From Escherichia coli (lineage in GTDB: Bacteria; Pseudomonadota; Gammaproteobacteria; Enterobacterales; Enterobacteriaceae), in the NCBI RefSeq assembly GCF_003991155.1, contig NZ_CP031293.1: a stretch of DNA of 64,000 bases; one strand, given 5' to 3'. Position numbers and translations under genes: made by a program. Shown here in pieces: positions 35,250 through 63,828 of the stretch (position 1 is the first letter of the stretch; each line of letters opens with the position of its first letter). Below the pieces are notes generated by a model, which was not told where the DNA came from, did no database searches, and saw only the letters and a list, made by a program, of their open reading frames with translations.

Positions 35250-35342
35250 GTGGCGTGCTGAGCAGGTGTGATGTTGTTGTCACACCCGGAGCCATTACCC
35301 GATGCGCAAGCTTATCGTGCCTACACATTATCTCAACACACG

Positions 35343-35378
35343 TAGGCCGGATAAGATGCGCCAGCATCGCATCCGGCA
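35343..35378. repeat. REP element
   Basis: TAGGCCGGATAAGATGCGCCAGCATCGCATCCGGC. Confidence 0.6.
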
Positions 35379-56175: not shown

Positions 56176-57396
56176 CTATAAAGCCTGCAGCAAGCTGGCG
56201 AGTTCTCGATTGATCACCTGCTGGTTAAAATCGTGTTCGACTTTTTCGCGAGCACGTTTGATAACCGGAGCCAGTTCGTCGGTGTCCAGTTGGCTAAACG
56301 CCGCCAGTCGTTGCGCCAGTGCGCGAGCATCGTTCTCAGGCACCAACCAGCCGGATTTATCGGCCTCCACCAGTTCAGGAATTCCGCTATGCAGAGTAGA
56401 AACCACCGGAATGCCGACCGCCATCGCTTCCATTAGCGCCACCGGAATGCCTTCCATATCGCCGTCCGCACCCGTTACCGAAGGCAGCAGGAAAACATCC
56501 GCGTCGTCTAGCATCGCTTTCACTTCGTGGCTCGGTTTAAAGCCCGGCATCTCTACCACATCTTCCAGTTGATATTGTTCGATGAGGGTGCGCAGGCGTC
56601 GTTCCCACGGGCCAATGCCGAGGATGCGATAGCGAAATGCCACGCCCTGCTCTTTCAACTGACGGCAGGCTTCGATCGCCACATGCAGGCCTTTTTTCTC
56701 GGTTAAGCGTGCGACGGAAATGATTTCCAGCGGTGTTGCGGGCGCTTTCACCGGACGCGGGCTAAAGCGCGTCATGTCCACGCCCATGCGCGATACGGCG
56801 ATTTTTTCCCTCGGGCATCCCATTTTTTGCAGCCTTCCGGCCCACAGATCGCTGATCGGTAGCATCAGGTCGCCACGGCGGAACAGTTGCTGATATTCGG
56901 GAGTGTAGTGGTTGAGCACTTCCCGACTGGAGATATCAATGCCGTGGAAGATAGTAGCGATTTTGCCGCGAATGATACCCAGTTCCCGTAGTTTTGCTGC
57001 GATTACCCCCGCAGGGCCAAAATGAGCGATAAAGACATCGGCATAAAATGGTGTTGCGACCTGGCCGCAAATGGCAGACAAAATCAGGTTCCGCGACTCA
57101 GCACCATAGCGTTTGAGGTTGAGCGCCTGCCAGGTATTTTTACGATGAATGCCGCGTAAGGTCTGGCTGGCGCGGTGGCGCAGTTTCGCCACTTTGCCCG
57201 TAGGTTCGTCCTGTAACCAGCGGGTTCTGGCGGCAAGGTTATATTTTGTCCATGCCGCGTGGGTGTTTTGTGTGTCGCCTTTTTGCAGCGCGACAATCTC
57301 CACCTCAAAGCCCATATCAATAAACGCGGTAATTTGATTGAGGACGAAGGTTTCCGACGACAGTGGAAATTTCAGTAAAAAGAAGCCGACCTTCAT
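56176..57396 (-). CDS. wcaL: Colanic acid glycosyltransferase WcaL
   Basis: 406 aa GT1. Confidence 0.85.
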
Positions 57397-58673
57397 TTCG
57401 CCTCCCCGATGCGTTCAAGCACAGATTTCACCATCTGCATTCCCGTCTGACGTTCGCGACTGACGGCTTCGTTAAGTCGCGTGTTCAGTGCCGGAAGCTG
57501 GCCTAAGGTATCCGCAACCATCGCTTGCAGGCTGCCGTCTAATAAATGACGGATATCAATTGCCATCTCTGGTAGCCCCAGTTGTTGCATAATCCCGGCG
57601 GATTTATGTTCATAGTTGATGGCAATCGCCGGAGTGGCAAAGTTCATCGAGATAATGGCAGAGTGCAGGCGCGTACCGACGGTGAGTTCACAGGCCCCCA
57701 GAATTTTGCCCATTTCCAGATCGTTGAGTTCATCCATCACCACGTGGTAACGGGCAGGATCGCTGATGTGCTGGCGAAGATTGAGCGCCACCATGCGGTC
57801 GTCTTTGTTATAGCTGTCGATGCCCGTACAGGTGGAAAGCGCAATCACCTGATACCCTTCGTCGAGAATGCGATTGACCACCCCGGCAAAGGCTTTTTCA
57901 TACGCTTGCTGAGTGGTGCCGAGACGTTTGTCGAACGGTGCCAGTTCGCGCAGGGTAATTGCTACCGTTTTCTGTTGTGCGGCAACGTCCAGCCAGTGTT
58001 GAACGGCATAGCTGGCGGTGAAGTCTTCTGTGTGGTGATCGACCAGCCACGCAGTATCGACGCCATGTTCGACTTTTGCGGTGGTGATATTGCTGCGTTT
58101 CATCAGTTCAAGGCTGACCGATTCGCGCAGGATCAGCGCGTCGCAGTGACCAAAAACGTAGTTCGCCAGTTGGTTAAATTGCTCATCCTGGAATGGACCA
58201 ACGCTGTGACCAATCATAAATAGCGGCTTTTTCGCCATGAAAGTGCAAAGCGCGTGTTCAAACTGCGGCACGCCGTAGAGATCGACAAAAAACGATCCGC
58301 CGACCTGAATAATGGCGTCGTAACCTGACAGCAGGCGCACGAAGTCAGTGAATCCCTGAGCGATGGCGATATTACGCAGCTTGCCAGTGTCGGTGACGCG
58401 TGAGAGCAATACCTGATGCTGATAGCGGCGACGGAGGACTTTTTTAACGCGCCCGACAACGCCCGCCGCGCTGTTGTGTTTTTTCATTTGCAGGAACAGC
58501 GGATCGCCCATTACCGGGCGGTTGAGCAGCCAGGAAGAACTGACCGGATAGCGGCTCATCACGTCCACTTCGGCATGTGGATTGAGGATATTGATGGCAT
58601 CAAGTAAGCCACGCAGGATGGCGCTATCGCCACGATTGCCGCAAGTGTGGTTGCCCAGAATAAGTAATTTCAT
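57393..58673 (-). CDS. wcaK: Colanic acid pyruvyl transferase WcaK
   Basis: 426 aa. Confidence 0.85.
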   Translation of the reverse strand: MKLLILGNHTCGNRGDSAILRGLLDAINILNPHAEVDVMSRYPVSSSWLLNRPVMGDPLFLQMKKHNSAAGVVGRVKKVLRRRYQHQVLLSRVTDTGKLRNIAIAQGFTDFVRLLSGYDAIIQVGGSFFVDLYGVPQFEHALCTFMAKKPLFMIGHSVGPFQDEQFNQLANYVFGHCDALILRESVSLELMKRSNITTAKVEHGVDTAWLVDHHTEDFTASYAVQHWLDVAAQQKTVAITLRELAPFDKRLGTTQQAYEKAFAGVVNRILDEGYQVIALSTCTGIDSYNKDDRMVALNLRQHISDPARYHVVMDELNDLEMGKILGACELTVGTRLHSAIISMNFATPAIAINYEHKSAGIMQQLGLPEMAIDIRHLLDGSLQAMVADTLGQLPALNTRLNEAVSRERQTGMQMVKSVLERIGEAK

Positions 58674-58724
58674 TTTTTCCTCATAAATTTGATGCCAGGT
58701 GAGGCTGTGTTTGTTGTGTTCGTT

Positions 58725-59325
58725 GCCGTTTTTTGCCTGATGCGACGCTAACGCGTCTTATCAGACCTACAAGATCCGAGCACAGAACCGTAGGACGGAT
58801 AAGGCGTTCACGCCGCATCCGGCATTCAGTGCCTGATGCGACGCTGACGCGTCTTATCAGGCCTACAAGACCCGAGCACAGAGCCGTAGGACGGATAAGG
58901 CGTTTTACGCCGCATCCGGCATTCAGTGCCTGATGCGACGCTGACGCGTCTTATCAGGCCTACAAGATCCGAGCACAGAACCGTAGGCCGGATAAGGCGT
59001 TTTACGCCGCATCCGGCATTCAGTGCCTGATGCGACGCTGGCGCGTCTTATCAGGCCTACAAGACCCGAGCACAGCCCCCCAGGACGGATAAGGCGTTTT
59101 ACGCCGCATCCGGCATTCAGTGCCTGATGCGACGCTGACGCGTCTTATCAAGCCTACAAGATCCGAGCACAGAACCGTAGGCCGGATAAGGCGTTTTACG
59201 CCGCATCCGGCATTCAGTGCCTGATGCGACGCTGGCGCGTCTTATCAGGCCTACAAGACCCGAGCACAGCCCCCCAGGACGGATAAGGCGTTTTACGCCG
59301 CATCCGGCAACCGTTGCCGGAACCG
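58725..59325. repeat. Tandem REP/BIME array (about six units of about 98 bp)
   Basis: Repeated GCCTGATGCGACGCTGACGCGTCTTATCAGGCCTACAAG...GGATAAGGCGTTTACGCCGCATCCGGCA units. Confidence 0.8.
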
Positions 59326-59336
59326 AAAACAGCCAT

Positions 59337-60815
59337 TCACCCCGCCCGTAAAAGCATTTTCATTTTTTCGCTGCGACAAAACTGACGCTTCACTTCCACT
59401 ACCAGCGGATGGCGTGACAGCACAATCATCACCACAAACGCCAGCACGCCCGCGGCTATTTGCACCGCCAGCAGCATGCCCAGAGCCATTTGCCCTTTCA
59501 GTACAATGCCCAGCGCATAACTGACCACCAGCGTCGGCAGCGAGAGATAAAACGGCAGCCATAAACTGAGGATGTACTGGCGATAACTGGAACCAAGAAC
59601 CGGTTTAATCATCACGAAGTAACTCAGAATGGTGTTGATAATCTGCACCAGCAGGAAACCGAGCGTGACGCCGATTGCGCCCGCCATCTGCCCACCAATA
59701 ACAATCGCCGGAATAAACAGAAAGGTTTTGAATACGTTGAATTTAAAGCTGATATCGACCCGCGCTTTCGCCATCAGCAGCGAACCAATCGGGTTCCCTA
59801 CTGAGCGCAGCAGCCCCACCACACACAGCAATTGCAGCACCGGAATAATGCTGCTCCACTTCTCACCAAAGACCAGCGGTACAAAGTTATTCGACACCAC
59901 CATCAGCCCCAGCAGCGCCGGAAAGTTGATAATCCCCACCACCGACAGCAGCTTGTAGAAGTTGATGCGCAGCTTTTCGGTGTCGTCCTGAATTTTGGCA
60001 AATGCCGGAAACAACACGCGGGTGATGATCGGATTCAGCTTCATCGGCGGCACAACGGCCACGTTGTACGCCAGGTTGTATCCCCCTGCCACGCCCGCAC
60101 CGAGAATACGCGCCAGCACCAGCGTTGAAAGGTTGGTGTTGAGATAGTTGATGATGCTGTCCGCCGTCAGCCAGGCACCAAAGCGTAAGTTCGGTGCCAC
60201 CGACGCCAGCGAGAAGTGCAGACCGGGGCGATAAATTTTGCGGCCAAAGTAGCCAAACAGCAGCGTTCTTACCGCACTATTGACCAGATAACCGAGGATC
60301 GCGGTCATCGCCAGTGGCCAGAAATGGGCGCTAACCACCGTAAAAGTGAAGCCCGCCAGCACCGCGCTGGTTTCGATCATGCCGATTTTGTTGAACTCCA
60401 GCTCTTTTTGCATCAACGCGCGGAACTGCTGCCCGTGGGGGATCACCACAAACGCCAGCGACAATGTTTTAATCAACGGTGCCAGGTCTGGGTTGTTCAG
60501 CACGTCACCAATGAGATCACTCAACAAAAACACCGCCACGCACACCACAAGCCCCAGCCCGACGTTCAGCCAGTACAACGTGGTAAGTTCCAGGTGACTG
60601 ATTTCTTTTCGCTGAATAATCGAGTTAGCGATACCGAAGTCAGAAAGCGTATCTGCCAGCGCGATGATCACCAGCGACACGGTAAGCAAACCGAACTGGT
60701 GGTTGTCGATAATCCGCGCCAGCACGGTCATCTGCACCAGCCCGAGGCCGATGATGATCACCGTGGCAATCGCCGACCACTTCGCGCCGCTGATGGTTTT
60801 TTCACGTAAGCTCAT
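59337..60815 (-). CDS. wzxC: Colanic acid flippase
   Basis: 492 aa polytopic membrane protein. Confidence 0.85.
   Translation of the reverse strand: MSLREKTISGAKWSAIATVIIIGLGLVQMTVLARIIDNHQFGLLTVSLVIIALADTLSDFGIANSIIQRKEISHLELTTLYWLNVGLGLVVCVAVFLLSDLIGDVLNNPDLAPLIKTLSLAFVVIPHGQQFRALMQKELEFNKIGMIETSAVLAGFTFTVVSAHFWPLAMTAILGYLVNSAVRTLLFGYFGRKIYRPGLHFSLASVAPNLRFGAWLTADSIINYLNTNLSTLVLARILGAGVAGGYNLAYNVAVVPPMKLNPIITRVLFPAFAKIQDDTEKLRINFYKLLSVVGIINFPALLGLMVVSNNFVPLVFGEKWSSIIPVLQLLCVVGLLRSVGNPIGSLLMAKARVDISFKFNVFKTFLFIPAIVIGGQMAGAIGVTLGFLLVQIINTILSYFVMIKPVLGSSYRQYILSLWLPFYLSLPTLVVSYALGIVLKGQMALGMLLAVQIAAGVLAFVVMIVLSRHPLVVEVKRQFCRSEKMKMLLRAG

Positions 60816-63699: not shown

Positions 63700-63828
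<129 letters not shown>

Follow-up and report, generated by a model that had tools for sequence, protein, structure and literature searches.

A BIME-2 array of six Z2-Y repeat pairs, variable in copy number, in the wzxC-wcaK spacer of the Escherichia coli colanic acid operon

We found that the spacer between the colanic acid genes wzxC and wcaK holds a BIME-2 element of six tandem Z2-Y pairs in the stretch of Escherichia coli DNA analyzed here (64 kb in its full length, hereafter the window). With a probability of about 85%, the results are explained by a dispensable BIME-2 element in the RfaH-dependent wza-wcaM operon, the unit number of which drifts by unequal exchange or slippage, and which may act on RNA and DNA as its family and the REP325 array of K-12 do. 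The present data show the identity, structure, polymorphism and mode of change of the element, and its actions on RNA and DNA are predicted from the family and from REP325. Descriptions of BIME-2 arrays, of their gyrase binding and of copy numbers that differ from strain to strain go back to the 1990s. The element family is thus long known, and polymorphism at the wcaK-wzxC site has already been published.

Tandem Repeats Finder placed a tandem array at 58734..59309 (period 97, 5.9 copies, 93% matches, 0 indels, score 1005), which is the sole array with a tandem score of at least 80 in the window. The array lies entirely inside the wzxC-wcaK spacer (58674-59336, 663 bp) and is thus extragenic, as is characteristic of REP elements. 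Its unit consists of a Z2 REP, a 19-nt S-type linker, an inverted Y REP and the 7-nt linker ATTCAGT. Written out, the near-identical copies read TGCC-TGATGCGACGCTGACGCGTCTTATCAGGCCTAC, followed by the 19-nt linker AAGAYCCGAGCACAGARCC, then GTAGGACGGATAAGGCGTTTTACGCCGCATCCGGC and finally ATTCAGT. The two opposed palindromes of each unit add up to six Z2-type and six Y-type REPs, 12 in all, which alternate along the array with the consensus GCCTGATGCGACGCTGACGCGTCTTATCAGGCCTAC for Z2 and GTAGGACGGATAAGGCGTTTTACGCCGCATCCGGC for Y; the Z2 and Y strings used for naming them are those that we take to be the literature consensus, and they were checked against REP325. All 12 palindromes measure 34-36 nt, within the 30-40 nt of imperfect palindrome by which REPs are recognized. 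Scanning for palindromes of both types returned six of each and no similar sequence nearby, the Y REP of unit 1 having been missed by the substitution-only scan owing to a 1-nt deletion. The sequence-only reading had described about six REP/BIME units of approximately 98 bp, head to tail between wcaK and wzxC at 58725-59325; this description was borne out, its coordinates and unit length being correct within a few bases. The features are as follows, entries without further remark resting on palindrome scan and RNA folding:

58734..59311, no strand: BIME-2 array of six tandem 97-bp units (Tandem Repeats Finder and units in register)
58735..58770, - strand: Z2 REP of unit 1, GTAG end on the - strand, 2 substitutions relative to the array consensus, -17.8 kcal/mol as sense RNA
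58790..58823, + strand: Y REP of unit 1, GTAG on the + strand, loop 1 nt shorter, GTTCACGCC
58831..58866, - strand: Z2 REP of unit 2
58886..58920, + strand: Y REP of unit 2
58928..58963, - strand: Z2 REP of unit 3
58983..59017, + strand: Y REP of unit 3
59025..59060, - strand: Z2 REP of unit 4
59080..59114, + strand: Y REP of unit 4, CCAG replacing the conserved GTAG at 59080-59083
59122..59157, - strand: Z2 REP of unit 5, holding the single G>A difference from unit 3
59177..59211, + strand: Y REP of unit 5
59219..59254, - strand: Z2 REP of unit 6
59274..59308, + strand: Y REP of unit 6, CCAG replacing GTAG at 59274-59277
59312..59319 and 58721-58728, + strand: 8-bp direct repeat CGTTGCCG bracketing the array (read from the sequence and the empty-site alignment)

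The tetranucleotide GTAG, which is required for binding by TnpA_REP (PMC3333891), stands 5' to the stem foot in 10 of the 12 REPs, the exceptions being the Y REPs of units 4 and 6 with CCAG. The linker variant CAGCCCCCCAGG, which goes with the CCAG Y REPs, also occurs in alleles of other lineages (L006, L007, L012 and L013) and is old for that reason. The 8-bp repeat CGTTGCCG is represented by one diverged copy in the empty-site allele; it may be a BIME flanking motif, which pairs with the end of the last Y REP, a target duplication or a microhomology.

The element is assigned to BIME-2 because inverted Z2 and Y REPs, short linkers of 19 and 7 nt and tandem copies match the published definition. 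According to that definition, BIME-2 joins Z2 and Y by short linkers, and BIME-1 is a single copy of Z1 and Y with a long L linker that frequently contains an IHF site (PMC3333891). We found no long L motif in the array. IHF binding, which the sequence-only reading had attributed to the array, does not fit this assignment, since the IHF site belongs to the L linker of BIME-1, and a motif scan did not find the IHF core WATCAANNNNTTR on either strand of the spacer. An IHF-binding element of the BIME-1/RIB type could draw on the general citation of REP elements as IHF sites, and on nothing specific to this locus; it is extremely improbable, given Z2 instead of Z1 palindromes, linkers of 19 and 7 nt, a tandem instead of a single-copy arrangement, and the missing core.

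The array is framed by two genes on the - strand, the names of which are carried by RefSeq records matching the window at 100%:

59337..60815, - strand: wzxC, colanic acid repeat-unit flippase, upstream gene of the operon (MOP flippase NF007773, 831 bits)
57393..58673, - strand: wcaK, pyruvyl transferase, downstream gene (TIGR04006, 934 bits)

Upstream of the wcaK ATG (58671-58673), GAGG at 58679-58682 forms the ribosome-binding site, and 60 nt separate this ATG from the end of the array. Two open reading frames within the repeat (58733-58933, + strand, 66 aa; 59293-59562, - strand, 89 aa) were dismissed as chance frames and are annotated in no RefSeq record. Liang, Rudd and Deutscher reportedly described in 2015 that a REP within about 15 nt of an upstream stop codon brings about translation stalling. 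The TGA stop of wzxC (59337-59339) is separated from the first REP stem in the mRNA by 28 nt, and ribosome stalling by a stop-proximal REP is unlikely here. The wza-wcaM operon is bound by RfaH at its leader ops site in strain CFT073 (PMC9765446).

Elsewhere in the window, single Z2-type REPs are located in the cpsG-cpsB spacer (63727-63762, + strand) and in the convergent wzzB-hisIE spacer (35342-35377, - strand), two sites around the O-antigen locus that were listed as REP-bearing by Iguchi et al. 2011 (PMC3158064). The annotation of the matching record (L014) shows, in the region from about 29000 to 54000, an O-antigen cluster of the O11 family that includes a separate gmd-fcl-gmm-manC-manB set. 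Two cpsG/manB paralogues are thus close together in the window, and it is possible that this pair serves as substrate for exchange between the colanic acid and O-antigen clusters.

In order to place the array among other E. coli alleles, we searched complete genomes with the joined flanks minus the array and read the size of the insert from the span of each hit. The search was run twice with different flank lengths, rows were sampled at even ranking steps, and 115 rows were obtained, the window's own record being excluded. As the collection over-represents certain clones, the following values are sample counts and not population frequencies:

0 units: 13 of 115 sampled genomes
1 unit: 21 of 115
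2 units: 31 of 115, the commonest class
3 units: 6 of 115
4 units: 11 of 115
5 units: 20 of 115
6 units: 4 of 115 (~3%), namely ATCC 25922, EcPF5, W137 and UTI89
60-bp remnant: 3 of 115
Unrelated 161-bp spacer: 6 of 115 (~5%)

One example of each allele class was read directly in sequence. The wcaK-wzxC spacer of K-12 MG1655 measures 275 bp and holds 2 units compared to 663 bp and 6 units in the window; the 388 bp between them correspond to 4 x 97. More than six units were found in none of the 115 sampled genomes. The impression of the sequence-only reading that copy number is high was confirmed, six compared to two in K-12 being the top of the 0-6 range in these 115 genomes. The comparison across strains that it had proposed, with identical numbers in reference strains as the outcome speaking against it, gave numbers that differ between reference strains. 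For REP loci of K-12, 1-12 palindromic units have been quoted, and the 12 of the six-unit allele correspond to that maximum (bioRxiv 10.64898/2026.03.23.713779). Six versus two copies is an expected and documented kind of polymorphism. Large clones were uniform, the sampled K-12 derivatives all having 2 units, O157:H7 all 1 and ST131 all 4, which indicates that changes in copy number are rare. An additional search for longer arrays with a synthetic query of the flanks and 14 units returned 4-unit rows at the top (spans of ~983 bp), as the ranking was not ordered by length, and longer arrays would not have stood out in it. It was left out of the distribution, and its spans were correct on spot checks of P19_598, EC958 and the ATCC 25922 assembly CP009072.

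The comparison with array-free alleles and with related species shows that the array is a dispensable and derived insertion. The empty-site allele of E. coli has a 71-bp spacer that aligns cleanly to the left and right of the insertion. We additionally inspected other Enterobacteriaceae, taking one genome per species and a DNA pattern for the WcaK N-terminus, and found the wzxC-wcaK gene order to be kept in 74 other species with a median spacer of 30 bp. The spacer is usually 15-40 bp long, does not exceed 40 bp in 46 of the 74 species and reaches 271 bp at most. It is the existence of the empty-site allele together with these spacers of about 30 bp that points to dispensability and to derived origin. 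Spacers longer than 100 bp were found in 15 of the 74 species and mostly hold other intergenic repeat families: boxC-like GC-rich repeats in Pluralibacter, Buttiauxella, Kosakonia, Lelliottia and Pseudenterobacter, and, in Citrobacter, REP pairs. The wzxC-wcaK gap has thus been colonized repeatedly, each time by the repeat family active in the host concerned.

The internal order of the units provided information on how their number changes. Units 5-6 are identical to units 3-4 (58928-59121) at 193 of 194 positions, so that the window allele can be written as A B C D C* D, with the following additional feature:

59122..59315, no strand: second copy of the 194-bp two-unit block (units 5-6), absent from four genomes with otherwise identical flanks

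Among 37 genomes with 2-kb flanks 99.5-100% identical to those of the window, 33 have six units and 4 have four units (P19_598, 24AR0376, SX4 and SX48). P19_598 was read directly and contains exactly units 1-4 (A B C D), with 0 mismatches in 2000 bp of flanks. The window allele, which is the longest seen at this site, differs from the four-unit A B C D allele by a single two-unit block, gained or lost, in DNA that is otherwise identical. A second case is given by two assemblies of ATCC 25922 with identical flanks: CP009072 (NZ_CP009072.1) reads A B C' D' with a 468-bp spacer and CP037449 (NZ_CP037449.1) reads A B H B C' D' with a 661-bp spacer, H being a hybrid with its Z2 half from C' and its Y half from A. 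Such a hybrid is the signature expected of unequal crossover or slippage in a two-unit register. This difference of two units (194 bp) could be a change from stock to stock or an assembly error. The six-unit alleles of the window and of ATCC 25922 appear to be independent in origin, as judged from the different blocks that are duplicated, and parsimony would favor a change from four to six units for ATCC 25922 only. A smaller change is seen in the 60-bp remnant allele (NZ_CP074764.1, positions 941-1085 of extract L008; also H244 and H245), in which a 34-bp internal deletion bounded by 3-bp CGA repeats has removed most of the Z2 REP and left a lone Y REP. Overall, the number of units drifts through unequal homologous exchange or through replication slippage from one unit to another, and the steps often comprise two units (194 bp).

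The disagreement between the two ATCC 25922 assemblies illustrates that assemblies can differ at this site, and one might suppose that the repeat number of the window was inflated by an assembly artefact. However, at least 30 independent complete genomes contain the same 1501 bp at 100% identity, and the substitutions that tell the units apart come in a consistent order, so that the chance of an artefact is close to negligible. The 194 bp by which the two assemblies of one reference strain stand apart nevertheless call for caution in assembly and typing.

Another view of the locus is that the array matters chiefly in recombination, as a breakpoint or landing site at which lineages exchange neighboring segments of the O-antigen and colanic acid clusters by homology. 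In line with this view, Iguchi et al. 2011 (PMC3158064) described REP indels for the wcaK-wzxC spacer and located a shift in sequence similarity precisely at this spacer. In addition, the spacer of 161 bp found in NZ_CM187540.1 (positions 941-1101 of extract L009; also in H87-H89, H220 and H229) is not homologous to the array and contains a boxC-like GC-rich repeat. Between genomes of this type and the window, identity is 99.5% in wcaK and only 96.8% in wzxC, which indicates a recombination junction in the spacer. Against a specific role of the array stands that junctions would gather in whatever intergenic gap adjoins the O-antigen hotspot and that few cases are known; we regard such a role as unlikely. 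It is moreover compatible with the BIME-2 explanation and does not exclude it.

Returning to the BIME-2 explanation, we analyzed the RNA that the spacer would yield. All 12 REPs fold as hairpins in the sense RNA (- strand), with energies from -14.8 to -22.1 kcal/mol, and the whole 663-nt spacer folds at -333 kcal/mol (z = -11.8 compared to shuffled sequences). A promoter/terminator scan revealed no promoter-like site on either strand and no intrinsic terminator, that is, no GC-rich hairpin followed by a U tract, in 58300-59700. REP hairpins are known to withstand 3'-5' exonucleases and to set stable 3' ends, and attenuation that depends on Rho can also arise from BIMEs (PMC6061677 and references therein). 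The closest case with experimental data is REP325, an array of 12 hairpins inside yjdMN, where the downstream gene is ~8-fold lower and the upstream mRNA is strongly stabilized; a ladder of hairpin-ended RNAs is formed, and dependence on Rho is partial and seen only with the full 12-hairpin array (bioRxiv 10.64898/2026.03.23.713779).

By analogy, the 12 hairpins on the - strand mRNA might block 3'-5' exonucleases and protect the upstream wza...wzxC message, and some transcription or message would be lost before wcaK-wcaL-wcaM, probably more than with the 4-hairpin allele of K-12. It is thus plausible that the array acts as an mRNA stabilizer and a mild attenuator of wcaKLM, in keeping with the roles of mRNA stabilizer or partial terminator considered by the sequence-only reading. 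This prediction is tempered by the lack of a U-tract terminator or promoter-like site and by the inversion of the array relative to REP325. In addition, RNA polymerase modified by RfaH resists Rho. RfaH should for this reason blunt the Rho-dependent part of the attenuation, which may be small as a result. The persistence of alleles with 0-6 units in successful lineages likewise suggests that any effect of the array is weak or neutral.

Matches to the Rfam family naRNA4 (RF02564) raise the question whether the array consists of naRNA4-like genes for small, nucleoid-associated RNAs that act with HU. Five Y+Z2 junctions at 58793-59251 on the + strand scored 63.5-78 bits and thus above the gathering score of 59.5, whereas the operon sense strand (-) gave 44.9-53.6 bits and remained under it. 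The passing matches are hence antisense to the wca genes, which shows that the array is inverted compared to REP325, and no promoter-like site accompanies them on either strand. As naRNA4 was built on one unit of REP325, the five matches also agree with the assignment to BIME-2. The Rfam model is effectively one Y+Z2 junction of a BIME-2, and the HU-naRNA4 compaction model was not reproduced (bioRxiv 10.64898/2026.03.23.713779). Small RNA genes of this kind are therefore a highly improbable explanation of the array.

With regard to DNA, gyrase cleavage sites are over-represented in BIME-2 elements, mostly in Y REPs and independently of transcription (PMC6379681). On these grounds, the six Y REPs may supply a cluster of gyrase binding and cleavage sites. 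The earlier proposal of gyrase binding is accordingly supported for the BIME-2 family and would extend to the wzxC-wcaK array by analogy; as to the locus itself, wcaK and wzxC are absent from the Topo-seq supplements of PMC6379681.

The effects described for REP325 also bear on whether unit number is itself under selection. The authors of the REP325 preprint proposed REPs as tunable dials of expression (bioRxiv 10.64898/2026.03.23.713779), and unit number at wzxC-wcaK might accordingly be a selected, heritable rheostat that sets wcaK-wcaL-wcaM against the upstream genes and tunes the completion or pyruvylation of colanic acid. The span of 0-6 units, the recent two-unit changes in otherwise identical DNA, the strength of attenuation by REP325 and its Rho dependence at full length only would all suit such a rheostat. 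However, large clones are uniform, so that switching is rare, host and source showed no obvious relation to copy number among the rows listed, alleles with an empty site or an unrelated spacer persist, and RfaH should damp Rho-dependent attenuation. We therefore judge a rheostat to be distinctly unlikely. A slowly switching form of it appears very unlikely, namely a selected dial in which every added Z2-Y pair would make the upstream message more stable and let less read-through pass into wcaK-wcaL-wcaM. If a dial did operate, lineages with 0-6 units should differ in the amount or pyruvylation of colanic acid, and two-unit steps by unequal exchange should be seen on observable timescales.

The significance of the array beyond housekeeping is small, and dozens of public genomes have its six-unit allele. 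Its alleles, from 0 to 6 units and including the unrelated spacer, nevertheless form a natural series in a well-understood, inducible, RfaH-dependent operon. This series may be used to relate the number and orientation of hairpins to mRNA protection and attenuation, a question that was reopened by the 2026 REP325 preprint.

Compared to known elements, the array shares with BIME-1/RIB-RIP a Y REP paired with an inverted REP, and has neither the Z1 palindrome nor the long IHF-bearing L linker nor the single-copy state of that class. With the BIME-2 family in the nomenclature of Gilson and Bachellier (PMC3333891) it has in common alternating opposed Z2 and Y REPs, short linkers, tandem and extragenic arrangement, and copy numbers that vary between strains; there is no essential difference, two Y REPs having CCAG instead of GTAG here. 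The allele of K-12 MG1655 agrees with that of the window in insertion point, flanks and unit type and differs in having two units instead of six. REP325, located between yjdM and yjdN of K-12, differs in its unit of 100 bp with the linkers AAATTCCCGCACCCTCC and ACGGTGCCGAC, compared to 97 bp and other linkers in wzxC-wcaK. Its naRNA4 orientation is the operon sense, whereas the wzxC-wcaK array is inverted relative to transcription, and the quantitative analogy between the two may for this reason not carry over; moreover, the operon of the wzxC-wcaK array is RfaH-dependent, unlike that of REP325. In overall architecture, REP325 is nonetheless alike, as it also consists of six Z2-Y units with 12 hairpins inside an operon, occupies a spacer of ~660 bp and is ~81% identical to the array described here.
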